DNA from: Alphaproteobacteria bacterium
Lineage (GTDB): Bacteria > Pseudomonadota > Alphaproteobacteria > RF32 > CAG-239
Direction: 5' to 3'
NCBI GenBank assembly: GCA_045632645.1
Contig: JAZQXC010000014.1
Span: 18,166 to 82,165, forward strand
Length of the DNA stretch: 64,000 nt
Part shown: in pieces, positions 5,719 to 37,527 of the stretch
Numbering within the stretch: the stretch's first letter is position 1
How the letters are laid out: every line of letters begins with the position of its first letter
The notes under the pieces: model-generated
Told to the model about the DNA's origin: nothing
The model's input: the letters and a program-made list of their open reading frames with translations, nothing else
The model's database searches: none
Position numbers and translations under genes: made by a program

Positions 5719-5814
5719 ATAAAAAAATATCCATCAAAGCACTAAAAAATAGTTGAGAAATTATAAAGCTGTGCTAAACTCCTTTTATCAAAAATATAAG
5801 GAACAAAAAACAAA

Positions 5815-8800
5815 ATGAAAGACCCCAAATTTGTGCATTTAAGAGTCCACACAGCATACTCACTTGCTGAAGGTGCTATTATGCTCCCAAAACTCATGCA
5901 TAAATTACATGACATGGGGGTTCCAGCTATTGCTGTAACAGATAGCGCCAACATGTTTGGTGGTAAAGCTTTTTCCAAATATGCATCAGATGAAGGTATA
6001 AAACCTATAATGGGTTGCCAATTTTTATTAAGAAATGAAGATTCAGACAACCTCCTCATCTCAAAGGGTAAAGAGCTAGAACCTGATAAAATTGTTTTAC
6101 TCGTAATGAATAAAACAGGTTACGAAAACATTATGAAGCTAATGAAACATTTTTATCTAGACAACACTGCTCATGGTTGGTCACCTCAATTAACAATAGA
6201 TAATTTAAGAAATTATAACGAAGGATTAATAGCTCTTACTGGTGGAACAAGTGGTCCAATAGGTCGCCTGCTGCTTGAAAACAGAAAAAAAGAAGCCATT
6301 GATACTTTAATAAACCTAAAAGATATTTTCAACGATCGCTTATATATGGAAATATCAAGAATAGGTACTCAAGAAGAACAAAAAACAGAAGAAGACTTTA
6401 TAAATTTTGCTTATGAATATAATATTCCACTTGTTGCAACCAACGAAGTATTTTTCTTAAACGAAGAAATGTTTGAAGCGCACGATGCTCTCGTTTGTAT
6501 TTCTGCCGGAGAATATGTCTCAAACGAAAATAGGCGTCGCTTTTCTATCAATAACCGACTTCGAACAGAAGAAGAAATGGTAGAACTTTTTAAAGACCTA
6601 CCAGAAGCTCTAAATAACACTGTTCGCATAGCAAAACTTTGCAACTACTTATCTAAAAAAGTAGATCCTCTTTTGCCAATATTTGAATGTCCCAATGGTA
6701 AAACACAAGATGAGTTCATTACAGAAGAGGCCTTTAGTGGCCTGAATGATAGAATGCAAAAAGCAGTATATCACGATGGCTTAACTCAAGAAGAACGTTT
6801 AGCAATTGATGAAAAGTATTATAAACGTTTAGAATACGAGCTTAGCGTTATCAAAAAAATGGGATTCCCTGGCTATTTTCTAATAGTATCAGACTTTATT
6901 AAATGGTCAAAAGCTCATGGTGTATCTGTTGGACCAGGACGCGGTTCTGGTGCAGGCTCAATTGTTGCATGGGCGCTAAAAATTACAGAATTAGATCCTA
7001 TCAAGTTAGACTTACTTTTTGAGCGTTTCTTAAATCCAGAACGTGTAAACATGCCTGACTTTGACGTGGATTTCTGCCAAGAAAATCGCTATAAAACTAT
7101 AGAATATGTACAAGAAAAATATGGTTTTGACCATGTTGCCCAAATCATAACTTATGGTAAATTACAATCAAAGGCCGTAATCAGAGACGTAGCTCGTGTT
7201 CTCCAAATGCCCTATTCTCAAGCAGATAAAATATCAAAGATGATACCTGCCGGCGTTCAAGGTAAAAACCCAACACTACCTGAAGCACTAGAGCAAGTTC
7301 CTGAGCTTGAAGAGATGCGCCAAAACGACCCACAAGTAAACAAGCTTTTTGAAATAGCAATCAAACTTGAGGGCTTATATCGTAACTCAGGTATGCATGC
7401 TGCTGGTGTTGTTATTGGTGATAGACCTCTAGAACAATTAGTGCCTTTGTATAAAGACCCTCGCGCTGATATGCCTGTAACAATGTATGATATGAAATTT
7501 GTTGAAGAAACAGGTTTAATCAAGTTTGACTTTTTAGGCTTAAAAACCCTAACCGTAATTCAGCGCGCTATTGACTGGATAAAAATATCTCAAGGCATAG
7601 ACCTCGATATGGAAACAATTCCACTTAACGATGAAGCCACCTACAAAATGCTCCAAGATGGAAAAACAACAGCTGTATTCCAATTCGAGTCTGCCGGCAT
7701 GAAAGACGTACACAAACAAATAAAACCAGACCGTTTTGAAGATTTAATCGCTATTGTTTCACTCTATCGTCCAGGACCAATGGATAATATTCCAACCTTT
7801 ATTAAAAGAAAACACGGCGAAGAAGAAATTCAATATCTACACCCAGCACTAGAACCAATACTAAAAGAAACATACGGCATCATGGTATATCAAGAGCAAG
7901 TTATGATGATTGCTCGAGAGCTAGGCGGCTACACAATGGGTGGTGCAGATAAATTGCGTAAAGTAATGGGTAAAAAAATGCGTGATGAAATTCCAAAGCA
8001 ACGCATAATGTTTACCGAAGGTGCAATCAAAAATGGTATTGATGAAGATGTTGCAAAAAGCATATTTGACCAAATGGAAAAATTTGCATCCTATGGTTTT
8101 AACAAATCACACGCCGCCGCATATTCACTAGTATCATACCAAACAGCATACCTAAAAGCACATTATCCTGTTGAATTTATGTGCGCCGTTATGGATTTAG
8201 ATATAACCAACACTGATAAACTCGCAACATTTAAAGCAGAATGCAAAGCTTTAGGTATTGATGTGTTAAAACCAGATATAAACGAATCACTTGCAAAATT
8301 CAGTGTTCAAAATGGCAAATTAAGATATGCTCTTGGAGCTATAAAAGGCGTAGGTGAAGCCAATATGAATGCCATTATTGAAGCGCGCAATAAAGGTGGA
8401 AAATTTAAAGACCTTTCAGACTTTATAAATAGAGTAGATGCAAAACAGCTAAATCGCAAACAACTAGAACAATTAATAAAAGCTGGTGCACTTGATTGCT
8501 TAGAGCCTAAAAGAGGTAAACTCTTTGCTAACATAGATACAATCTTAAAAAATATCTCATCAGCAACAGAGTTAAAGACAAGTGCTCAATCATCGCTCTT
8601 TGGAGCAGAAGAATATTCATCAAAGGTAAAACTATTTGATGCACCAGATTGGCCAGATTTAGAAAAACTACGCATAGAAGCAGGTGCTATAGGCTTTTAT
8701 TTATCAGCCCATCCTCTTGATGTATACCACGACAGTATGAAAAGATTAGGTGTAAAAACATGCTTTGAAGTTATGTCAAATATCAAAGTTGGCGATAGTA

Positions 8801-10097: not shown

Positions 10098-11335
10098 AAC
10101 GTAAACAATTCTCTTATTTTATCATTATCAATATAAGATAAAATTTCTTCCAAATGCGCATCTATTAATATTTTAGTTGCGCATTCTTTTTCTATTCCTC
10201 TAGACATCAAATAAAATAATTGCTCTTTATCAATCTCACCAGAACTAGCCCCATGAGAGCACTTAACATCATCGGCATAAATTTCAAGCTCTGGCTTACA
10301 ATTTAACTCTGCATTATCCCCTAAATAAAGGGCCTTGTGTAATTGATTACCGACAACTTTAATAGCATCTCTTTCGATTCTAACCTTACCTTGAAAAGTT
10401 GCTTTAGATTCATCTTCCAAAACAGCTTTCACATATTGATTAGAAAAAGTTTCTAAAACCTTATGATTAACATTGGTTGTAATATCTGTTAAACAGTCTT
10501 TTCGAGCAATATAAGCAGAATATACATCGATTTTAGCACCAGAATTTTCCAAATTAGCCAAGGTTTCATTACGGCTAATTTTTGCACCATTAGATAAATA
10601 AAATTGCACATAATTTGCATCTTTATGAGCTTTAACAGCATTAAGTGATATATTATAAGCTTTTAAGCTTTCTTTTTGCACCTTATAGTGCTTTAAGATA
10701 CTGCTTTCTTTTAAATATATTTCATTAACTATATTAACAAAATATCTATTATCATTAGAAGATAAACATTCTTCAACAATTTCTAATTTAGCATTTTTAC
10801 CAAGCATGATAAGATTATGAATATTACACATCATATTTTGAGAGTGGCAATTTCTATAAGAAATTTTTATAGCTTTTTCACTATTTACATTATCATCAAC
10901 TTCAATACAAATACCTTGTTCTAAATATATCCCATTAAGCGCTGCAAACGGATATTTTTCAATATCAAACGAATTAAATATATATTTTTTGTATTCATCT
11001 TCATACAAAGCAACAGGCAAAGGAACAATTCTCACACCTTTAGGTAGATTATACTCCTCAACATGCAAATTACCTCTACAAAAATCTACCTCAATAAAAA
11101 AGTCATCACTTTTTTTACCACAACAACAATTACCATCGCAAACATCTTTTGCCAAAGAAATTTCAAAATCACCATTCACAATTTCTTTAACATCACTATA
11201 TTTAAATTCTTCAGTTTTTTTGTTTGGAAATCCTCTTTGTAAAAGAGCCTTTTTTGCCTTGTCTCTTAAAGCAAAAACACTTGGTTTATCGTCTAAAAAA
11301 AGTTCAACATTTTTTATCAAAGAAAAGTAACTCAT
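10094..11335 (-). CDS. sufD: Fe-S cluster assembly protein SufD (SufB/SufD family)
   Basis: C-terminal KPELEIYADDVKCSHGASSGEIDKEQLFYLMSRGI signature, 413 aa, immediately downstream of sufC. Confidence 0.8.
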   Translation of the reverse strand: MSYFSLIKNVELFLDDKPSVFALRDKAKKALLQRGFPNKKTEEFKYSDVKEIVNGDFEISLAKDVCDGNCCCGKKSDDFFIEVDFCRGNLHVEEYNLPKGVRIVPLPVALYEDEYKKYIFNSFDIEKYPFAALNGIYLEQGICIEVDDNVNSEKAIKISYRNCHSQNMMCNIHNLIMLGKNAKLEIVEECLSSNDNRYFVNIVNEIYLKESSILKHYKVQKESLKAYNISLNAVKAHKDANYVQFYLSNGAKISRNETLANLENSGAKIDVYSAYIARKDCLTDITTNVNHKVLETFSNQYVKAVLEDESKATFQGKVRIERDAIKVVGNQLHKALYLGDNAELNCKPELEIYADDVKCSHGASSGEIDKEQLFYLMSRGIEKECATKILIDAHLEEILSYIDNDKIRELFTF

Positions 11336-11338
11336 CTT

Positions 11339-12094
11339 TTATTCTTTCAAAAAAGAGGCATAACCATTTTTCTCTAATTCTAAAGCAAGAGTCTTATCAC
11401 CTGATTTAATAATTTTACCATCTGCAAAAATATGAATAATATCAGGAACAATATAAGACAACAAACGTTGATAGTGTGTTATAACTAAAAATGCATTTTC
11501 ATCACCTCTAAGTGTATTAACACCTTCGGATACAACTTTTAGCGCATCAATATCTAAACCAGAATCTATCTCATCTAAAATTGCAAAATGAGGTTTTAAT
11601 AGCGCCATTTGAAGCGTCTCAAAACGCTTTTTCTCGCCACCCGAAAAACCAACATTAACAAACCTTTTTAGCATATCTTGACTAACACCAAGAGCATCAG
11701 CCTCTTTTCTCAATAATTTCATAAACGAAATAGTATCGAGCTCATCTTCCCCTTTATATTTTCTAATAGCATTAAGAGAATGTTTCAAAAAATTAGAAAC
11801 GCCTACGCCAGGAATTTCTGTTGGATATTGCATAGATAAAAACAAACCTTCCCGAGCTCTTTCTTCTATACTCAACTCCAAAAGATTCTTTCCTTTAAAT
11901 ATAATTTCTCCATCAGTAACTTCATATCCATCTTTACCACTAAGCACATAAGATAAAGAAGATTTACCAGCACCATTTGGCCCCATAATGGCATGAACTT
12001 CACCCTCATTAATAACCAAATCAAGTCCTTTTATTATTTCCTTATCACCAACACATGCGTGCAGATTTTTTATTTCTAATAAAGCTTTTGCCAT
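11339..12094 (-). CDS. sufC: Fe-S cluster assembly ATPase SufC
   Basis: ABC ATPase Walker A GPNGAGKSS, LSGGEKKR signature; 251 aa. Confidence 0.9.
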   Translation of the reverse strand: MAKALLEIKNLHACVGDKEIIKGLDLVINEGEVHAIMGPNGAGKSSLSYVLSGKDGYEVTDGEIIFKGKNLLELSIEERAREGLFLSMQYPTEIPGVGVSNFLKHSLNAIRKYKGEDELDTISFMKLLRKEADALGVSQDMLKRFVNVGFSGGEKKRFETLQMALLKPHFAILDEIDSGLDIDALKVVSEGVNTLRGDENAFLVITHYQRLLSYIVPDIIHIFADGKIIKSGDKTLALELEKNGYASFLKE

Positions 12095-21378: not shown

Positions 21379-22746
21379 ATGAAATACATATTAAAAAATC
21401 ATTTATATATTATCGGACTTGCTCTTACTATATCTTTTGCAGTAGCATTAAATTGGCAGATTCCTCCAAACTTAGATGAAGCAAGAGCTTACATGATTGC
21501 TCGTTATTTATCACCAATAGAAATATTCTCTATTAGCAAAACTGAGGGACATCCATTTTTGTGGTTTTTTATATTAATGCCCATAACCAAACTACACACA
21601 TTTTATCCCATCCCTCTTTATGCTATAAACTTAATTTTTATTATCATAGCTCTTTACATTTTATACAGTAACAAATCAATTCCAACATATATAAAATATT
21701 TTATAACACTATCTACTCCCTTCCTTAAATTTTACAACAGCTTTGCTCGTTGTTATTCCCTTACCATTATGCTCTCATTTATTATCTTAAAAATACGGGA
21801 ACAAAGATTCTCTAAGCCTTTCACATATCTATTTTTAATAATTCTATTAGCCAACTCAAGTGCAATGGGCTTCTTTATAGCCTCGTCATTGTGGGCACTA
21901 TTTTTATACGAAAATTTTGTAAAAATAAAAAGCACACAAAACACAACAACCACATATTTAATAATTTTTTGTGGTGTTGTTGAGTTGTTTCTCCTCTTCT
22001 TACAATTCTATGGATATAATACTCAAATTCCTATAGTAACTCCAAAATTTAAAACCCTAAAAGATGGTTTAAATATCGCCTATAGTCCTATAAATGTTTA
22101 CATGCTAATTATTTTATATATTGCAAGTTTCTGTATTTTTATAAAACAAAAGAAATATCAATCTTTCTTTTTTCTACTTTTTACCTCTACTCAGCTAACT
22201 ATATTAATAAATTTTATTCACCGTGGAGGAAGTCAGCATTACTACTTTTATTACATAAATTTAATTTATGCATATTTAATAGCGCAAAAGCTAAAGCATT
22301 TACATTTCATACCTTTAGCAATTTTAAGCTTTGCTCTTATCTTTAATACAAATATGCACTATAAAAAACACGACATATCATATTTAACAGACTTAAAAAT
22401 AAGCGCCTTAGAAATAAACAAACTATATCCAACGCAACCACAAGAAATTTTTGCTTTTGAAGATATACAAAGCAACATTTTCGAACCATATCTAAAATCA
22501 AATATAACACTATTAAACCAAACAGGAAAATCTCTAAAAACCTTAAAGGGGTTAGAAGAGTTTTTATACTATTTATATATCCCAATAAAAGCAAAAGACA
22601 TTGAACGCATTGCACAAAAAAATCCGCACACCTTACTTTATAAAGCATGCGGAGAAGATGTATATTATAACAGCAATCTTAAATTCAATCTAAAACATCG
22701 TCTAAATCAACAATATTGCCTATATAGTATTAGCATAAACAACTAA
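21379..22746 (+). CDS. GT-C fold glycosyltransferase (ArnT/PMT-like, family 39/83-like) polytopic membrane protein
   Basis: About 11 TM helices; first extracytoplasmic loop carries DE motif ...PPNLDEARAYMIARY... Confidence 0.5.
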   Translation: MKYILKNHLYIIGLALTISFAVALNWQIPPNLDEARAYMIARYLSPIEIFSISKTEGHPFLWFFILMPITKLHTFYPIPLYAINLIFIIIALYILYSNKSIPTYIKYFITLSTPFLKFYNSFARCYSLTIMLSFIILKIREQRFSKPFTYLFLIILLANSSAMGFFIASSLWALFLYENFVKIKSTQNTTTTYLIIFCGVVELFLLFLQFYGYNTQIPIVTPKFKTLKDGLNIAYSPINVYMLIILYIASFCIFIKQKKYQSFFFLLFTSTQLTILINFIHRGGSQHYYFYYINLIYAYLIAQKLKHLHFIPLAILSFALIFNTNMHYKKHDISYLTDLKISALEINKLYPTQPQEIFAFEDIQSNIFEPYLKSNITLLNQTGKSLKTLKGLEEFLYYLYIPIKAKDIERIAQKNPHTLLYKACGEDVYYNSNLKFNLKHRLNQQYCLYSISINN

Positions 22747-29917: not shown

Positions 29918-30703
29918 ATGAGTTTTAAAGATTTAGGGTTAAGCAACAACACAATTCGTGCAATAGAAGACTTAGGCTACAAAGAGCCAACAACTGTCCA
30001 AAAAGATGTTATCCCATCGGTTTTAGCCGGCAAAGACATCTTCATTATCGCACCAGCTGCTTGTGGCAAAACATGCTCATACATTTTTCCATTAATAGAT
30101 ATTATTTCTCAACACGATGGGCAAAATATTTTAATAATCACATCTGATGATAAAGAAGCTGTAAATGTATCAGACAAACTCTCTATTTTTAACAAATACC
30201 ACGAAATGAACAACAAGCGTAAAGACAACCCAGAAACAGATGCAAACGTTATCATCGGCGCCCCAAGTTTATTGTTAGAAAATATCACAGAAGAAAAAAT
30301 AGACATTAATAATATAAATATTTTGGTAGTTGATGACATTAATTTAATCAAAAAGAAACGCCAACTTAAAAACTTAGATAAAATTTTAGAAATACTACCA
30401 TCAAACAAACAAAACATTGTATTTACAACACGTAGATCAAAAGAAACACAAGACACATTAAACAAAATTCTAAAAGCTCCTGCAGAAATCAAAATAGATA
30501 AAAACAAAGAAAGCGAAGTAAAAGACGTTCAAAACGAACCAACACTTCCTAAAGATGAAAATAAAAAAGCTAAAAGAATAAAAGATAAAACACCACTCGA
30601 TAAAAAAGCTATCGAGCTCGCAAAGAAAAATAAAGCCTTTGGCTTTAATCCACCTCATTTCTTATTAACAGAGTGCAAACTCGTTGAAGGGGATGATTTA
30701 TAA
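29918..30703 (+). CDS. Degenerate DEAD-box helicase domain-1-only protein with Lys-rich tail (predicted catalytically inactive)
   Basis: Q-motif TTVQ retained; motif I AxTGxGKT replaced by APAACGKT, DEAD by DDIN, SAT by FTT; no helicase C domain. Confidence 0.6.
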   Translation: MSFKDLGLSNNTIRAIEDLGYKEPTTVQKDVIPSVLAGKDIFIIAPAACGKTCSYIFPLIDIISQHDGQNILIITSDDKEAVNVSDKLSIFNKYHEMNNKRKDNPETDANVIIGAPSLLLENITEEKIDINNINILVVDDINLIKKKRQLKNLDKILEILPSNKQNIVFTTRRSKETQDTLNKILKAPAEIKIDKNKESEVKDVQNEPTLPKDENKKAKRIKDKTPLDKKAIELAKKNKAFGFNPPHFLLTECKLVEGDDL

Positions 30704-30777: not shown

Positions 30778-31533
30778 ATGGCTGGACACTCCCAATTTAA
30801 GAACATTATGTACCGCAAAGGTGCACAAGATGCAAAAAAAGCTAGAGTTTTTGCAAAACTAGCTCGTGAAATTACTGTTGCTGCAAAAACAGGTCTTCCT
30901 GAACCAGATAAAAACCCTCGTTTAAGACTTGCAATCCAAGCAGCACGTGCAGAAAGTATGCCAAAAGATAATATTGAACGCGCTATTGCTAAGGCAACAC
31001 AAGTTGCAGGTGGAGCAGACTTTATCACAATGCGCTACGAAGGTTTTTCAGCAAACAAAGTAGCTGTAATTGTTGAAGCATTAACAGATAACAAAAACAG
31101 AACAGCAAGTAACGTTCGTTCAATTTTCGGCAAACGTGGTGGTGCAATGGGCGAAACAGGCTCTGTTGCATTTAACTTTGAGCGTATCGGATACATTGAA
31201 TATCCTTTAGCTGTTGCAGATGCTGACACAATGTTTGAAGAAGCATTAAACGCAGGTGCAAACGAAGTTATTTCAGAAGATGAGATTCATGCAATAGAAA
31301 CTCTTCCTGATGATTTATCATCTGTAACAGAAGCCTTAGAACAAAAATTCGGAACACCATCTGCTTCTCGTCTAGACTGGAAACCAACTGTTAAAACAGA
31401 CATTACAGACTTAGAAACAGCTAAAAAGTTCCTAGAATTTATTGATGCATTAGAAGAAGATGAAGATGTTCAACATGTTTATCACAATGCAGAAATATCC
31501 GAAGATGTTATGTCACAGCTAGAGGCTGAATAA
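30778..31533 (+). CDS. yebC: YebC/PmpR-family transcriptional regulator
   Basis: MAGHSQFKNIMYRKG start, GGAG RBS; 251 aa. Confidence 0.9.
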   Translation: MAGHSQFKNIMYRKGAQDAKKARVFAKLAREITVAAKTGLPEPDKNPRLRLAIQAARAESMPKDNIERAIAKATQVAGGADFITMRYEGFSANKVAVIVEALTDNKNRTASNVRSIFGKRGGAMGETGSVAFNFERIGYIEYPLAVADADTMFEEALNAGANEVISEDEIHAIETLPDDLSSVTEALEQKFGTPSASRLDWKPTVKTDITDLETAKKFLEFIDALEEDEDVQHVYHNAEISEDVMSQLEAE

Positions 31534-31535
31534 TA

Positions 31536-32024
31536 ATGCGCATATTAGGCCTAGACCCAAGCATATCATCAACCGGTTGGGGCGTAATAGATGTCGAGGG
31601 GAGCCGTTTGTCTTATAAGGCAGACGGCTTTATTCCAACATCAAACAAATTACCATTATCAGAGCGCTTGCATATTATACATAACGAACTAAAAAAAATA
31701 ATAGAAATATACAAACCAGACGAAGCCTCTATCGAGGTCACATTCTTAAACTCAAATCCCGAAACATCATTAAAGCTAAGTATGGCAAGAGGCGTTGTTT
31801 TTCTAATGCCAGCTCTTTACAATATTCCACTTTATGAATACGAGCCAAACAAAGTAAAAAAAGCTCTAACCGGCGTAGGCAGAGCAGACAAAACCCAAGT
31901 AGAAACAATGGTAAAAATATTGCTTCCTGGAGCAAAACCTCAAAACAATGACTCATCAGACGCTCTAGCTATAGCTATAACTCATGCAAATTTAAGAAAT
32001 TCTTTTAGCTTACAAAAAGTTTAA
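31536..32024 (+). CDS. ruvC: Crossover junction endodeoxyribonuclease RuvC
   Basis: ILGLDPSISSTGWGV start; 162 aa. Confidence 0.9.
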   Translation: MRILGLDPSISSTGWGVIDVEGSRLSYKADGFIPTSNKLPLSERLHIIHNELKKIIEIYKPDEASIEVTFLNSNPETSLKLSMARGVVFLMPALYNIPLYEYEPNKVKKALTGVGRADKTQVETMVKILLPGAKPQNNDSSDALAIAITHANLRNSFSLQKV

Positions 32025-32026
32025 AT

Positions 32027-32056
32027 AAAAGGGGAGACCAAAGTCTCCCTTTTTTA
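32027..32056 (+). terminator. Rho-independent terminator after ruvC
   Basis: AAGGGGAGACcaaaGTCTCCCTT + T6. Confidence 0.85.
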
Positions 32057-32071
32057 TATTTTAACAAAGAT

Positions 32072-32902
32072 CTATCCTCTTTCACCTTGTAGTACAAAAG
32101 GATATATTTTCATATCACTAGTACGAACTTCTTTTGGTTTGTTATGGTATGCATCTAAACTTTGTTTCATTGTTGAATCTTTTTCAGCATCTACAACTTC
32201 GGCAAATCTATCAACCAAACCGTTACAAAATTTAGTAAGCTCAGGATGATTATCTACAATCCTAGAGCAAACATTAACAACCCCCGCATTTGCAGAGCTC
32301 AACTGTATTCCTTTTGATTTTGCAACATTAACAACCTTTTCCATGTGAGAAATAAATTTCTCAGAAAGTCCTCTGTCTTCTATACATAATGTTTCTGCAA
32401 GACCTTCCTTAAATAAATTATCTACACCTTCATCCCTCAAACCGCTTACTGTTAATCTGCCAGCTAGTTCTTCAAAAACGGTTTTTCTATAACTATAGCA
32501 ATAAACACTAGCATCCTTTTCGCAATTTCTATCCCTCTTCATTGCATTATAAAACTCAAGAGCTTTATTATTTAAAGCAAACCCATCCTCTGGTTTTACC
32601 ATTTCAACAACACCCTCAACAACATCTTTGCAGGTCCAAGCAAGCCCAGGATATTGTTTTACTATTTCAGTACATATATCTATCAATTGTGTGTTATTTT
32701 CACTGATTTTGCCTTTATAGTACTTCACGTTTACAAGCTTTTGCCTTATATGCTCAGCAACTCTTTTAGCATCGTCTCCACTCAACAAACCAACATCAGC
32801 TACTTCAAACCCTGTATCATCTTGTGATTTTTGATTTTTATCAAACCCAAAAAATATATTACGCTCTGTTAAACGCTCTATAAAATTATCTGCAAGCTTC
32901 AT
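32072..32902 (-). CDS. Hypothetical repeat protein A (two copies of C-x2-IV-x2-(Y/H)P(G/E)L-x3-C motif), paralog of 32996..33742
   Basis: AAGGAGAGG RBS before ATG of MKLADNF; motifs ICTEIVKQYPGLAWTCKDVV and VCSRIVDNHPELTKFCNGLV. Confidence 0.55.
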   Translation of the reverse strand: MKLADNFIERLTERNIFFGFDKNQKSQDDTGFEVADVGLLSGDDAKRVAEHIRQKLVNVKYYKGKISENNTQLIDICTEIVKQYPGLAWTCKDVVEGVVEMVKPEDGFALNNKALEFYNAMKRDRNCEKDASVYCYSYRKTVFEELAGRLTVSGLRDEGVDNLFKEGLAETLCIEDRGLSEKFISHMEKVVNVAKSKGIQLSSANAGVVNVCSRIVDNHPELTKFCNGLVDRFAEVVDAEKDSTMKQSLDAYHNKPKEVRTSDMKIYPFVLQGERG

Positions 32903-32967
32903 GATCCTCTCCTTTTTTATATAACATAGATAAATAATACCACAAATACACTCCCATGTCAACATAC

Positions 32968-32998
32968 ATAAGAAAGAGGGCTCACGCCCTCTTTCTTA
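32968..32998 (-). terminator. Perfect 12-bp hairpin terminator after repeat protein B
   Basis: AAGAAAGAGGGCtcacGCCCTCTTTCTT. Confidence 0.75.
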
Positions 32999-33742
32999 CA
33001 TTCCCATTCCTATTCCATATCCCATTTCATATTGATAACCATCATCCATTTTATCGCACTTTTCTTTCATTTTTTTTGCTTCTTCCTTAGCCACAAGATT
33101 ATTACTTCTCCTTATTACTATATTACAATATTCTTGAGCTGTTCCAATTATATTATCATCATCAGAATTTAAATCAACAACCTTGCCCACTAATTGATTA
33201 CATTTTTCAGCCAACTCAGGGTGTCTAGATACAATTTTTTTACAATTTTCCACTATTGCATTTCCATAATAACCATTCTGACCTATTCCTTCATATAACT
33301 TATCTGTATATGCAACATATCGCTCTGCAACATCTTTATCTTCCAAACCAACCACACCATATGCATACGCCTTATCTCTTTCAGAAGAAAGCATGCCACA
33401 TAATTTTTTACGACTTATAAGCATCTTTTTTGCTTCAGATACATTAAAACCACCACTATTACCAATCTCAGCATATACAGCTAACATACTTCTTGCAAAG
33501 AAATTTTCCTCTTCTTCTGTTCCTCCAGCATTCATTTCTCCATATCTTACTAGCTTCTCTGCTACATTATAAATATCTTTAGGATTACAACTTTTATCCT
33601 TACTTACATTATATAAATCACAAGCCACTCCCCAAAGTTCACCATAAGAAAATTCTTCTCCTTTAATTTCTTTTGCATGAAAAAGTGTTACTTTTCTCTC
33701 TACATCTTCTAAACTAGTCATAGATCTATCTCCAAAACTCAA
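32996..33742 (-). CDS. Hypothetical repeat protein B (paralog of A; motif ENCKKIVSRHPELAEKCNQLV)
   Basis: Shares HPEL / Cys-pair motif with neighbour; 248 aa; ends in G/M/Y-rich tail. Confidence 0.55.
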   Translation of the reverse strand: MSFGDRSMTSLEDVERKVTLFHAKEIKGEEFSYGELWGVACDLYNVSKDKSCNPKDIYNVAEKLVRYGEMNAGGTEEEENFFARSMLAVYAEIGNSGGFNVSEAKKMLISRKKLCGMLSSERDKAYAYGVVGLEDKDVAERYVAYTDKLYEGIGQNGYYGNAIVENCKKIVSRHPELAEKCNQLVGKVVDLNSDDDNIIGTAQEYCNIVIRRSNNLVAKEEAKKMKEKCDKMDDGYQYEMGYGIGMGM

Positions 33743-33784
33743 AATTCATAGATTATAATACACTTTCCGCCCAACATTGTCAAA

Positions 33785-33813
33785 TATAAAAAAAGAGGGC
33801 TCATCGCCCCCTT
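33785..33813 (-). terminator. Rho-independent terminator after cyclophilin gene
   Basis: Minus-strand AGGGGGCgaugaGCCCUCU + U7; core resembles terminator at 32968. Confidence 0.8.
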
Positions 33814-33817
33814 ATTT

Positions 33818-34489
33818 TTACATATCAGCAACAACTTCCATGCTAACTATAATATCTGGATCATGAACCATACCATTATAGCCACCGCCTTTTTTGATAT
33901 TATCAACATATTCCATACCGCTTACAACCCTACCCCAAACAGTATATTGTCCATCTAAGTGTGGAGCATCATCAAAACAAATAAAGAATTGGCTATCAGC
34001 AGAATCAGGATGCATAGCTCTTGCCATAGAAACTGTACCACGAGTATGAGGAACTCTATTAAATTCTGCTTTTAATTTTTTACCACTTCCACCAGTACCT
34101 GTTCCTAAAGGACAACCTGTCTGCGCCATAAAACCATCAATAACTCTATGGAACTTCAAACCATTATAAAAACCTTCTCTAACTAATTCCTTGATTCTAG
34201 CCACATGATTTGGCGCAACATCTGGCAACATTTCAATCACAACTTCACCATCTTTTAATTTTAAAACCAATGCATTTTCTTGGTCTTTCACATCATAAGA
34301 ATGTTTCATTTTCTTTCCCCTTGTTTCACTTATTTCTAATTTTTTAGTTTCTTCTGCTGTAATACTTTTTGTATCACTTTTTTCCAAAACTTTTGTTTCA
34401 CTCTTAGCTAAAACATTTCCCATCATAAAACCCTTTGCAACAAAAATTAAAACTAAAGCTAAAATTATATTTAGGAATTTATTTCTCAT
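33818..34489 (-). CDS. ppiB: Periplasmic cyclophilin-type peptidyl-prolyl cis-trans isomerase
   Basis: Signal peptide; cyclophilin motifs FHRVIDGFMAQTG...GTVSMA...SQFFI. Confidence 0.85.
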   Translation of the reverse strand: MRNKFLNIILALVLIFVAKGFMMGNVLAKSETKVLEKSDTKSITAEETKKLEISETRGKKMKHSYDVKDQENALVLKLKDGEVVIEMLPDVAPNHVARIKELVREGFYNGLKFHRVIDGFMAQTGCPLGTGTGGSGKKLKAEFNRVPHTRGTVSMARAMHPDSADSQFFICFDDAPHLDGQYTVWGRVVSGMEYVDNIKKGGGYNGMVHDPDIIVSMEVVADM

Positions 34490-35423
34490 TATTCAACACC
34501 CAATCAATACGTTCATTTGCTGTTAAACCTTGAGGATAAGAATCTATTTCTTTCAACCTATCCCTTAAACCCACTCCGTTAGCAATTTGTATTGCAAGCC
34601 CTGGTCTTGCATTTATTTCCAACATCATAGGACCTCTTTCCTTATCAAGCACAATATCCGCGCCCAAATAACCAAGACCGGTCATATCATACGCCATTGC
34701 CCCAATAAGAAGATGTTCTCTCCAAAAAGGAACCTTTAAATCCATAAGATTTGCCCCAGTATCAGGATGATGTGTAACCTGTTTATTATGCATAACCGCA
34801 TTAAGCGTTTTACCTGTTTTTACATCTAATCCAACACCAACCGCACCTTGATGAAGATTTGCTCTACCACCAGACTCTTTTGTAGCCAACCTCATCATAA
34901 CCATCGCCGGATATCCTTTATAAACAATCACTCTAACATCAGGCACACCGCGATAACTAAAATCCTTAAATACCTTACTAAAATTAACCGTCTCTTCAAT
35001 CAAAGCAACATCATATTTACCGCCAAGACTAAACAAACCACTCAAGGTATTTGATATATGTTGATAAACATCTTCAAAACTTAACACATCACCAGATGCA
35101 TTTATAAACTCATTTCCATTATACTCTTTTATAACCAAAACACCCTTACCACCACTGCCATGCGCCGGTTTAATAACAAATGTTTTATGCCCTTTTATAA
35201 TATCTAATAGGTTTTTCACCTGATATTGATGCTCAATAATACCAATCATTTTTGGTGTATTAATATTTACACTATTAGCCAAGCGTTTTGTTTTTACTTT
35301 ATCATCAACAAGGGTATATAAAGAGCGCTTATTTTGTTTTGCAATCACATCATAATTGCGCCGGTTCATACCTAGAACACCATTTTTGCTTAACTCTTTT
35401 GCTATTTTAAACCATTTAAACAT
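34479..35423 (-). CDS. ATP-grasp enzyme, RimK-related alpha-L-glutamate ligase-like family
   Basis: GAGGA RBS before MFKWF; N-terminal GVLGMNRRN, ATP-grasp KPAHGSGGKGVLVI; start overlaps upstream gene by 8 nt. Confidence 0.7.
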   Translation of the reverse strand: MFKWFKIAKELSKNGVLGMNRRNYDVIAKQNKRSLYTLVDDKVKTKRLANSVNINTPKMIGIIEHQYQVKNLLDIIKGHKTFVIKPAHGSGGKGVLVIKEYNGNEFINASGDVLSFEDVYQHISNTLSGLFSLGGKYDVALIEETVNFSKVFKDFSYRGVPDVRVIVYKGYPAMVMMRLATKESGGRANLHQGAVGVGLDVKTGKTLNAVMHNKQVTHHPDTGANLMDLKVPFWREHLLIGAMAYDMTGLGYLGADIVLDKERGPMMLEINARPGLAIQIANGVGLRDRLKEIDSYPQGLTANERIDWVLNNEK

Positions 35424-36972
35424 TTGTATTTTCCTCATTTTTAACAAGAGGAGCAAAACGCATAAGTTCTGTTAATCTATATCCAGTATATGTACCCAAA
35501 AGCATAACAACAAACATTATAACGATATTAAATTCATTAAATGCAAACATAACATGGCGCACATATTCATTACTAACCACCACATAAGTAATAAGAGCCG
35601 TCAATACAGTATTAAATATCTCTTTAATAGTATTTTTAGCTCCTTCTTCTTCCCATGTAATTGATGCGCGCTCAATAATCCACGCTGTAATAATTATAGG
35701 AAAGAAAATAGCCGAGCTAATAATGTGATAATCAGCTCTATACCCAATAACTGTAAGCACTTGTATTAGTAAAATAACAAAAATCACCACAAACGAAATT
35801 CTAGGAACTAAAAGCAAATTAAGTCTAGCAACAACAGCTCTCATCAAAAGCCCTAAAAATATCATTATAGAAAAACAAACCACACCTGAAACAAGCCCTG
35901 TTTTAACAAGCGACATAGCAAGCAACATTGGTGTAAATGTTCCCATCGTAGAAACACCAATAACATTTCTCATCAAAACAACCATCAAAATAGCTAAAGG
36001 GAAAATCATTAACCACTTTAATGTATTTTGCTCTAATATAGGCAAAGAATATACGCTATATTCATAAGGAATAAGTAGTTTATGATCTCTAGCCTTATGC
36101 TCAGCCATTTTTTCAGGAGTTGTTACAGATTTTAACACAGAGAACATAACTTTAGAATCTTCGCCACCACGAACATCTAACAAAGAAACACCACCACGCT
36201 GGAAAACAACCAAGTTTTTGGCAAGACCAATATTGGCAGTATTCAAATCATATATTTTCCACTCATCATCTAAAAACGCCTCAAGCATAATATCTGGCTT
36301 TTCGGTTTTCTTACCTTCTTCAAGTTTAATAACTCTAACAATTCTAGCAGGAATTCTTTTATACGATAAAACATTGATAATCTTCTCTGCAAATTCTTTA
36401 GGGGTATAATTTAAAGGAATAATCAAGCTCATAGAAGGATTAATTACCTCCTTATTTAAAGCATTAATAATCTTTTGAACCTTATTTCCTTCATACAAAT
36501 GAGCCAACTCCCAAAGTTTACTCATTTGCCCTTTCTCTTCTTCGTTAAGTATTGGTCTTTCAATTTCTATAGGCTTCATTTCATCGCCTTTAACTTCATC
36601 AACATCATCATAAATGCTAAAGCGATAATAAAGATTTTGTTTTCCCTTCTTGTTTTTACCCTTAAAAACTATTCTGTTATTTATTTTATCGTGCTCAACA
36701 GCATAGTTTTTAGCAACAAATTCTTCGCTTAAGATTTTAAAGCTATAATTTGTTGTGGGAACACTAAGTCCAACCTCAACATCTCCACCCAACGCTCTAA
36801 AAGACACTTTCGCATCAATAGTCCAAACATCTGTAACTGCTTTGGGAGAAAACGTAAAACCCCAATATTTTATCTTATAATAACAGCAAGCAGAAGCATA
36901 CCACAAAGATAAAACAAGCAATAAAAACAATACTTTTCTAACACTAAAAAATTCAAAACCACTTTTTATCAT
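35416..36972 (-). CDS. Inactive-transglutaminase-like soluble domain fused to 7 TM helices
   Basis: 518 aa: N-terminal signal/anchor, about 300 aa soluble domain, then 7 hydrophobic helices. Confidence 0.65.
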   Translation of the reverse strand: MIKSGFEFFSVRKVLFLLLVLSLWYASACCYYKIKYWGFTFSPKAVTDVWTIDAKVSFRALGGDVEVGLSVPTTNYSFKILSEEFVAKNYAVEHDKINNRIVFKGKNKKGKQNLYYRFSIYDDVDEVKGDEMKPIEIERPILNEEEKGQMSKLWELAHLYEGNKVQKIINALNKEVINPSMSLIIPLNYTPKEFAEKIINVLSYKRIPARIVRVIKLEEGKKTEKPDIMLEAFLDDEWKIYDLNTANIGLAKNLVVFQRGGVSLLDVRGGEDSKVMFSVLKSVTTPEKMAEHKARDHKLLIPYEYSVYSLPILEQNTLKWLMIFPLAILMVVLMRNVIGVSTMGTFTPMLLAMSLVKTGLVSGVVCFSIMIFLGLLMRAVVARLNLLLVPRISFVVIFVILLIQVLTVIGYRADYHIISSAIFFPIIITAWIIERASITWEEEGAKNTIKEIFNTVLTALITYVVVSNEYVRHVMFAFNEFNIVIMFVVMLLGTYTGYRLTELMRFAPLVKNEENTNV

Positions 36973-36981
36973 ATTAAGTCC

Positions 36982-37527
36982 CTAATTTAAGGTATAAGAA
37001 GTTGATGTATCAACAATATATCTACCTGTTAAAATATTACGCCCAATCAACCCTTGATAATCAAATTGTCTTCTATCTGCAATAGAAAATACCGCACTAA
37101 AAACTTCTTTACCAAGTTTTACATCCATCTTAACAGCTCTTCTTCTTTCATCTTCACCCATTCTTTTAACCTTAAAAGAACGCTCAACTTTTTTTTCAAA
37201 AACATGCTCTTCGCCTGTTTTACGATTTTTTAATTTAAAAGAAACCCACTTTTCACCATCGCGTTCAAAATATTCAACATCATCACAATCAATAGATGAT
37301 GTTGTAGCACCCGTATCAATTCTAGCTAAAAACGGAGTTTTCATGGGCAAAAAATAAATAGGCTCAACCTCTCCAATAATAGGAAGATGAGCCTTTTCAA
37401 TAACAACCTCTTTCTTTGTTGTGTTAACATTATGCACAACAGCAGGAACAATTACTTGCTTTGTATGACAAGCAGAAACCAAAACCACAACCACTAATAC
37501 AACCACTAATATAAAAAACTTATGCAT
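36982..37527 (-). CDS. Lipoprotein retropepsin-like (clan AA, DTGA) aspartic protease ('putative ATP-dependent zinc protease' family)
   Basis: Lipobox VSAC; ARIDTGATTSSID aspartic protease signature. Confidence 0.7.
   Translation of the reverse strand: MHKFFILVVVLVVVVLVSACHTKQVIVPAVVHNVNTTKKEVVIEKAHLPIIGEVEPIYFLPMKTPFLARIDTGATTSSIDCDDVEYFERDGEKWVSFKLKNRKTGEEHVFEKKVERSFKVKRMGEDERRRAVKMDVKLGKEVFSAVFSIADRRQFDYQGLIGRNILTGRYIVDTSTSYTLN

Follow-up and report, generated by a model that had tools for sequence, protein, structure and literature searches.

Genes A and B, which lie side by side on the minus strand of the 64,000-nucleotide stretch of alphaproteobacterial DNA analysed here over its whole length (the window), are supported by sequence comparison as tandem paralogues carrying a domain, the HPEL domain, that is absent from Pfam, NCBIfam, PADLOC, PHROGs and the PDB. 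They appear to form a cassette that was recently exchanged between lineages at a fixed chromosomal slot, and by analogy with known systems we put the probability at roughly one half that they act as protein-binding helical modules that vary between strains and belong to a polymorphic system of conflict or interaction. The surrounding window is ordinary core chromosome with a GC content of 33.5% (DnaE, SecA, MalQ, PPDK, S1, enolase, SufBD, RarA, YebC and RuvC), and no further copy of the HPEL domain was found in it. The two genes and their parts are as follows, the M region being defined further below.

32072-32902, minus strand: gene A (276 aa plus stop), with two copies of the HPEL-hairpin helical domain according to the open reading frame (ORF), its translation, and repeat and profile matches
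32483-32821, minus strand: domain 1 of A (residues 28-140), with hairpin motif ICTEIVKQYPGLAWTCKDVV at 32618-32677
32075-32482, minus strand: domain 2 of A (residues 141-276), with hairpin motif VCSRIVDNHPELTKFCNGLV at 32213-32272
32996-33721, minus strand: gene B (241 aa plus stop), laid out as M region, one HPEL domain and tail, with its start as in the homologues
33038-33436, minus strand: HPEL domain of B (residues 96-228), with hairpin NCKKIVSRHPELAEKCNQLV at 33188-33247
32999-33046, minus strand: C-terminal tail of B, DDGYQYEMGYGIGMGM, the local version of the family tail GYQYEM...GG.EM, predicted by AlphaFold2 (AF2) to be disordered

The pair of adjacent ORFs and the length of A are as given in an initial annotation made from the letters of the window, which had taken B as 248 aa. 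That length follows from the start chosen by the ORF-listing program (TTG at 33742); all five B homologues start at the Met of MTSL or MATL (MTSLEDV in B), so B is taken as 241 aa, beginning at 33721. Gene A starts with an ATG that has AGGAG ahead of it. The three instances of the motif were found where they had been placed before, and the G/M/Y-rich end described for B is indeed its terminal sequence. Moreover, both proteins lack a recognisable domain (no match in Pfam or NCBIfam) and a signal peptide, as had been stated, and no transmembrane segment was found in either, the maximum 19-residue Kyte-Doolittle score being 0.92 in A and 0.66 in B. Both ORFs are intact, and their start and length are conserved across homologues of 43% to 98% identity.

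BLASTP aligned A146-242 with B108-194 (E=5e-8), a second alignment paired the N-terminal half of A with the same part of B (E=1e-3), and the two halves of A matched each other (E=1e-7). A hidden Markov model (HMM) built from B-type sequences only gave A 47.7 bits in two separate domains, and an HMM built from distant long relatives only, with neither A nor B included, gave 106 bits for B and 76 bits (31 + 46) for A, whereas of 4000 shuffled A/B decoys none did better than 8-13 bits. By these comparisons A and B are significant paralogues, far above chance, and the similarity, whose loss on shuffling would have counted against the initial annotation, stands well above the shuffled decoys. The repeated unit is another matter: in place of the module of about 30 aa first described, alignments and profiles delimit a domain of about 95-130 aa, which occurs once in B and twice in A.

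Word-indexed searches of 5.8e9 clustered proteins returned, for A, two relatives at 98% and 60% identity and, for B, four at 97-43%, and an exhaustive profile search over 1.84e9 representatives, made with the alignment of the domain, returned 19 proteins at E <= 1e-3. One of the 19, P0022, is a weak match (E 9e-5) to an 807-aa eukaryote-like protein with a Pkinase domain and tandem repeats of about 22 aa, VCTELLANHPDFLKRC(S/N), of the pattern C..hh..HP.h...C; this repeat of helical hairpins probably arose by convergence. Scans of A, B and their relatives against Pfam, NCBIfam, PADLOC and PHROGs gave only sub-threshold, inconsistent matches (OSR1_C, HEPN and others), and sequence-profile searches of the PDB gave nothing. 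Viral-contig scans with the B-type and long-form alignments also gave nothing, so a phage origin is not supported, and two scans of Joint Genome Institute (JGI) metagenome contigs were likewise empty. Among 185,579 species genomes there was a single match, a metagenome-assembled genome labelled "uncultured Alphaproteobacteria". The record of one relative leads to bovine metagenome PRJEB23561, the bovine rumen gene catalogue (10.1101/272690), and the label TONG22-1 on other relatives would, as judged from the label, refer to a buffalo digestive-tract study (PMC8831627). This is a very small, undescribed all-alpha family, confined, where the source is known, to Alphaproteobacteria of the ruminant digestive tract.

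The longest HPEL-bearing members (320-334 aa) contain all parts of the family architecture, which in terms of the long-form profile are the following.

Profile positions 1-70: N region, about 70 aa
Profile positions 70-175: M region, about 100 aa
Profile positions 185-280: HPEL domain
Profile positions after 280: basic linker and acidic/aromatic tail, the tail often GYQYEM.WHSHTTGG.EM

B is covered by this profile over positions 70-272, and A is covered twice over positions 185-279. A second clade, P0024-28 (336-353 aa), is matched at positions 1-175 only (63-90 bits), that is, over N and M, and P0009 and P0027, one protein of each kind, share 38% identity across residues 1-148, past which they are unrelated. 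In place of the HPEL domain the proteins P0024-28 have a Gly/Ala-rich, moderately hydrophobic segment, and P0024-type genes are always followed by a conserved ORF of 114-117 aa whose start overlaps their stop. In locus L010 the order is an Xre helix-turn-helix (HTH) gene, P0027, a 114-aa gene and a 5'-truncated ORF (11380-11847); the last of these is 96% identical to residues 182-332 of P0009, lacks N and M, and consists of an HPEM domain, basic linker and GYQYEMAWHSHTTGGMDM tail, so that it has the form of a displaced module. Judged from these alignments, the family is modular: N and M come first, and are followed either by the HPEL domain with linker and tail or by the Gly/Ala-rich segment with its partner gene. 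Two further candidates were set aside. The 353-aa protein of L003 was considered as a homologue of B, against which BLASTP speaks, the profiles showing only the N and M regions in common; and the 441-aa protein of L014 has only a visual likeness to the Gly/Ala-rich module, which the P0024-type HMM does not support.

All close relatives share the gene order porin, RimB-like, 7TM-transglutaminase, ATP-grasp and peptidyl-prolyl isomerase (PPIase), then ruvC, yebC, DEAD and rarA. The slot between the PPIase gene and ruvC is variable in content, and family members also occur at other sites.

Slot, window and L006: B and A
Slot, L004: B (3' part) and A; the contig begins inside B and the PPIase side is not covered
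Slot, L007 and L008: B only
Slot, L005: P0024, 117-aa gene and A; L003 and L001 likewise as far as their contigs reach
Slot, L010: HTH gene, P0027, 114-aa gene and fragment
Other site, L011: family member between an outer membrane protein gene and an M23 peptidase gene
Other site, L014: family member adjoining infC
Other site, L015 and L016: family member between prfC and tRNA-Leu/tig

A divergent gene for an Xre-type HTH protein of 72-77 aa stands directly upstream of the family gene in L010, L011, L014, L015 and L016, which represent four chromosomal sites. The cassette of L015 (9647-11063), consisting of the HTH gene and P0020, is flanked by prfC on one side and, on the other, by a tRNA-Leu gene (10979-11063) upstream of tig, a typical insertion neighbourhood. 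In L005 a long (CA)n microsatellite (about 5800-5840) lies in the spacer that runs from the PPIase gene to the P0024-type gene; it is not expanded in the orthologous spacer of L012 and could be a phase-variable element.

Within this slot the A-B cassette of the window is nearly identical to that of two diverged relatives.

32001-33856, unstranded: near-identity tract (exchanged A-B cassette), 98.5% identical to L006 and nearly identical to L004 over the part covered by that contig, against 82-89% in the flanking core genes

The tract has 28 differences in 1.86 kb, and its edges fall within the last 25-40 bp or so of ruvC and of the PPIase gene. The nucleotide identity of the window to L006 and L004 is 98.5% and 98.3% in B, 99.2% and 98.9% in A, and 100% in both cases in the spacer between A and ruvC, while in the same comparisons ruvC reaches 82-83%, yebC 88% and the DEAD gene 82%. 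L004 and L006 themselves are 92% identical in the flanks and 98-99% in the cassettes. Synonymous divergence is 0.006-0.02 in A and B versus 0.6-1.0 in the flanks. L008, on the other hand, has the RuvC closest to that of the window among the four loci compared (93% identical in amino acids) and a B that is only 58% identical. Because the cassette is 98-99% identical and the flanking genes are 82-92% identical across three lineages, a recent horizontal exchange is indicated; a chimeric assembly is unlikely, since three independent assemblies show the pattern. The simplest reading is that the content of the slot was recently replaced across lineages via homologous recombination. Furthermore, such a block of high identity in a diverged background points to selection on the A-B cassette. 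The L004 copy, 98% identical in nucleotides, differs in the tail of B, which there ends in SYQYEKGYE at a premature stop and has several substitutions within the last dozen codons; the end of the tail is thus a local hotspot of change (L004 1-480 against window 32999-33046).

The AF2 model of B, made from the five-sequence B alignment, is all-helical with 11 helices (predicted local distance difference test score, pLDDT, 87; predicted template modelling score, pTM, 0.81), and its tail, residues 229-241, is disordered. It contains a hairpin made of helix 150-166, the lone non-helical His167, and helix 168-184, which starts at Pro168. As Cys160 and Cys174 are each seven residues from the break at His167, they should face each other across the antiparallel hairpin, as read from the secondary-structure string and not from coordinates. 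On this model the C-x2-IV-x2-HPEL-x3-C motif is a tight helix-break-helix hairpin central to a helical domain of about 95-130 residues. Foldseek comparison of the model with the PDB and BFVD found generic helical repeats only (designed helical repeats, MamA TPR, ZER1, alpha-SNAP and Sel1), none at E <= 1e-3 and none with a TM-score above 0.46. Like TPR, Sel1 and SNAP-like scaffolds, the family is predicted to be all-alpha with stacked antiparallel helical hairpins; unlike TPR and Sel1 proteins, it has a conserved unit of about 95-130 aa and not a repeat of 34-36 aa, no TPR or Sel1 sequence model was matched, and none of the 19 members gave a consistent Pfam match.

The initial annotation had raised zinc binding by the paired cysteines; on that view the Cys pair, together with the His, would form a novel zinc-binding repeat. 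The columns C..I..........C...V are invariant in all nine A/B-type domain copies, the Cys pair being among them, and B-type sequences never vary at Cys160, Cys174 or Cys199, all of which would agree with such a site. In the wider family, however, only Pro168 and Cys174 (B numbering) are at least 90% conserved. All long forms, and P0008 too, have Tyr or Phe in place of the first Cys (Cys160); several members have Tyr or Asn where B has His167, and the position of Cys174 holds Ala or Gly in the Gly/Ala-rich relatives. Of the three or four conserved ligand residues by which a structural zinc site of Cys and His is recognised, Cys174 is the only one that reaches 90%. A zinc site is therefore unlikely, since most relatives have other residues in place of the first Cys and the His. 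The pattern of conservation fits the packing of a helix-turn-helix hairpin and not a metal site with three or four ligands, and we infer that the paired Cys positions are helix-packing contacts rather than metal ligands.

According to predicted promoters and terminators, A and B are each a transcription unit of their own.

33793-33813, minus strand: intrinsic terminator of the PPIase gene, AAGGGGGC-GATGA-GCCCTCTT plus T run, with a G-U pair (free energy, dG, -15.3 kcal/mol; z-score -3.7)
33755-33783, minus strand: predicted sigma-70 promoter of B, TTGACA-17-TATTAT, 11/12 matches
32970-32997, minus strand: intrinsic terminator of B, perfect 12-bp stem AAGAAAGAGGGC-GTGA-GCCCTCTTTCTT (dG -23.5 kcal/mol; z-score -7.0)
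32934-32962, minus strand: predicted sigma-70 promoter of A, TTGACA-17-(TG)TATTAT, 11/12 matches
32027-32054, both strands: bidirectional terminator of A (minus) and the convergent ruvC (plus), GGGAGAC-TTTG-GTCTCCC, unrelated in sequence to the other two hairpins

The two promoters are the two best sigma-70 matches in 31400-34600, and each lies directly 3' of a hairpin of the shared core. A promoter-like element similar to that of B is also present upstream of B in L007, and the element of A is kept ahead of its 60%-identical orthologue in L005 (TTGACT...TATAAT). All three hairpins have the properties of Rho-independent terminators (dG -14 to -23.5 kcal/mol, z-scores -2.6 to -7.0), and the region holds six terminator-like sites against 1.3 expected. 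The terminator of B, to which RNA folding adds two flanking pairs (14 in total), overlaps the stop codon of B and sits directly upstream of the promoter of A. A perfect hairpin with a shared core had earlier been assigned to the end of each of the two genes. Both hairpins exist, but one ends the PPIase gene and the other ends B, so that they stand upstream of B and A, respectively; and the stem is perfect at 32970-32997 only, that at 33793-33813 having the G-U pair. The spacers between the PPIase gene and B and between B and A align in 72 of 107 columns with a score of 54, compared with a mean of -2.2, a standard deviation of 8.2 and a maximum of 30 in 1000 dinucleotide shuffles. Since the spacers are alike beyond the shuffles, the duplicated unit would comprise hairpin, TTGACA-17-TATTAT promoter and gene, and its arrangement is consistent with tandem duplication. 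The proposal that a gene was duplicated together with its terminator thus holds in so far as regulatory DNA was duplicated with the gene, but in the unit the terminator stands upstream, followed by promoter and gene.

In the deep comparisons the ratio of nonsynonymous to synonymous divergence (dN/dS) is 0.42-0.61 in B and 0.51 in A, and 0.03-0.12 in the neighbouring genes; each of the deep pairs shows a significant synonymous excess (Fisher p from 6e-3 to 9e-7). Constraint on B is strongest in the hairpin, where the ratio of nonsynonymous to synonymous differences (pN/pS) is about 0.3 against L007 and L008, and the M region is nearly neutral (0.7-0.9). Because dN/dS is significantly below 1, as expected under purifying selection, A and B are to be regarded as real, fast-evolving coding genes and not as pseudogenes. 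Very recent pairs differ mostly at nonsynonymous sites, in counts too small for a test. For instance, the B-type genes of L012 and L009 (P0007 and P0006) show about 17 nonsynonymous differences and about one synonymous (pN/pS 3.4, not significant), and the seven nucleotide differences between the window and L006 in gene A give six amino-acid changes. It might be argued from the high dN/dS, from the near neutrality of the M region, from the varying presence of the genes among relatives, from the truncated tail in L004 and from L010, which proves that truncated fragments exist, that A and B are decaying remnants, displaced pieces from the family's longer genes, with hardly any function left or none. 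We think this quite improbable. Their ORFs are intact, with start and length conserved over the whole range of identity; dN/dS stays significantly below 1 at depth; promoter, ribosome binding site and terminator are conserved; and near-identical copies are kept in three diverged lineages.

The neighbouring operon at 34479-37527 (minus strand) encodes a RimB-like peptidase, a membrane protein with Transglut_i_TM/7TM_transglut domains and an ATPgrasp_ST ligase, and it is present in all relatives. Between it and B, at 33818-34489 (minus strand), lies the gene for the PPIase, which has an N-terminal signal-like hydrophobic segment, a Lys/Glu/Thr-rich quasi-repeat (KSETKVLEKSDTKSITAEETKKLEISETRGKK) and then the cyclophilin domain. 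The initial annotation had suggested, as speculation, that A and B are substrates of this operon or secreted effectors; a combined account would join this to the zinc repeat, with the acidic-aromatic tail as the end that is modified. RimK-type ligases do modify C-terminal tails, the family proteins have acidic/aromatic C-terminal tails with an ATP-grasp operon nearby, and in the window, L005, L010 and L012 about 750 bp separate the ATP-grasp gene from the slot genes downstream of it. However, the separately terminated PPIase gene stands in between, and B and A have their own predicted promoters. No ATP-grasp gene was found within 7-10 kb on either side of the members in L011 and L015, in about 10 kb upstream and 1.8 kb downstream of that in L014, or on the 3.3-kb contig of L016, and the operon is kept whether the slot holds B and A, B alone or other genes. 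Moreover, the family tail ends in Met and not in a run of Glu, it is variable, and it is truncated in the otherwise 98%-identical copy of L004. The link to the ATP-grasp operon comes down to adjacency in one syntenic slot and is unsupported, and with the first Cys and the His replaced in the wider family as well, we consider the combined zinc and substrate account highly improbable. The tail was also considered as the core of a ribosomally synthesised and post-translationally modified peptide of the graspetide type and rejected: the GG is followed by only three residues, and the ligase, which is of RimK/ST type, is not linked.

The loci for contact-dependent inhibition (CDI; cdiA-CT/cdiI), Rhs and Neisseria MafB are polymorphic toxin loci with displaced or orphan C-terminal modules, and the present family resembles them in several ways. 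Its N-terminal part is constant and its C-terminal modules are alternative and unrelated; the P0024-type ending is followed by a small partner gene with an overlapping start; in L010 the main gene has a 5'-truncated C-terminal module downstream of it; and the content of the fixed chromosomal slot is strain-variable and horizontally exchanged. By this analogy the constant N and M regions would carry swappable C-terminal modules, displaced modules would collect downstream, the way they do in CDI, Rhs and MafB loci, and the conserved tail would act as a recognition or export tag. The family differs from those loci in that it has no recognised PAAR, RHS, TPS, LXG or MIX domain and no known toxin domain, its proteins are short (235-353 aa), and A and B themselves are without the N region. 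It also bears a likeness to Xre-HTH accessory cassettes, the two-gene modules of toxin-antitoxin or defence type: the Xre HTH gene lies upstream at four unrelated sites, and the small cassettes are set among housekeeping genes, one of them adjoining tRNA-Leu. Unlike in those cassettes, the HTH gene is divergent and not co-operonic, and no PADLOC or Pfam toxin or defence family was matched.

Several observations weigh against a role of A and B in such a polymorphic system. The HPEL-type genes (B, P0016 and P0020) have neither a partner of the 114-117-aa type nor any other obvious immunity-like gene beside them. B has the same M region as the putative effector-type proteins, so the assignment to effector or immunity function is blurred. 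The window lacks the Xre HTH gene that stands beside relatives at four sites. In P0024 the hydrophobic segment, tried as a clear transmembrane hairpin, has a 19-residue Kyte-Doolittle score of only 1.18, and its membrane insertion is therefore not established. For A, AF2 gave only a poor model (pLDDT 59), and most relatives are known from short metagenomic contigs. In addition, no secretion system and no recognised trafficking or toxin domain was found within 7-10 kb on either side of the members in L011 and L015 or on the shorter contigs of L014 and L016, and the 64-kb window has no secretion system; the members have no Pfam, NCBIfam or PADLOC match to a secretion-linked N-terminal domain, and on the recovered contigs, over as much as 10 kb in either direction, their neighbours are housekeeping genes and not a secretion apparatus.

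Part of the same evidence could be explained if A and B were orphan immunity or antidote-like proteins, cytoplasmic helical binders that neutralise the Gly/Ala-rich P0024 type of neighbouring strains, which would explain the spread of the cassette. In L005 and L010 the P0024-type genes do have HPEL ORFs downstream of them, A and B are without signal peptide or transmembrane segment, they are tandem paralogues with their own predicted promoters, their presence is variable and recently swept horizontally, and their protein evolution is accelerated. Yet a better candidate for immunity to the P0024 type is the conserved 114-117-aa gene translationally coupled to it, and the HPEL domain occupies the effector position, because the long HPEL forms carry the P0024-type N and M regions; the M region of B is also shared with the P0024-type proteins, and the window has no P0024-type gene. 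We regard such an immunity function as unlikely. That they are exported alpha-solenoid effectors directed against a eukaryote, either the host or a rumen protist, with the C-terminal tail as secretion signal, seems to us decidedly unlikely. The TPR/SNAP/Sel1-like predicted fold, the conserved disordered tail, the occurrence, among known sources, only in metagenomes of the ruminant digestive tract, and the weak motif match to a eukaryotic kinase-repeat protein would suit it. But the recovered neighbourhoods and the window are without a secretion system, none of the structural matches is significant, and the tail is not family-wide, being truncated in L004.

Returning to a polymorphic system, a fuller version of it may be outlined, which we offer tentatively and hold to be doubtful. 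It would be an unrecognised polymorphic effector system of ruminant-gut Alphaproteobacteria, in which a new, constant N/M trafficking region carries one of at least two interchangeable C-terminal modules, either the helical HPEL domain with a YQYEM...GG.EM tag or a Gly/Ala-rich, possibly membrane-active module with a 114-117-aa immunity protein of its own, and which would be under Xre control and pass between species through cassette replacement at fixed slots; A and B would then be free-standing modules, kept for an activity of their own or as a recombination reservoir.

Elsewhere in the window, the ORF at 29918-30703 (plus strand) encodes a 261-aa protein with the N-terminal DEAD helicase domain only, a Lys-rich tail and no helicase C domain, whose position is kept in all relatives. 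The 455-aa ORF at 21379-22746 (plus strand) has no Pfam match at E <= 1e-5.

The 1.86-kb block at 98-99% identity in a background of 82-92% is a clean natural case of gene-specific horizontal replacement between diverged lineages. Should A and B turn out to have another role, the ideas of a zinc motif and of an ATP-grasp substrate would still be replaced by the hairpin of a helical domain, and the regulatory map would be corrected. If the proposed role is true, they would bring to the bacterial polymorphic conflict systems a domain family and a constant/variable architecture that are both new, from a poorly studied group of rumen and gut Alphaproteobacteria, uncultured and low in GC, and with none of the secretion-linked domains by which such systems are usually searched for.

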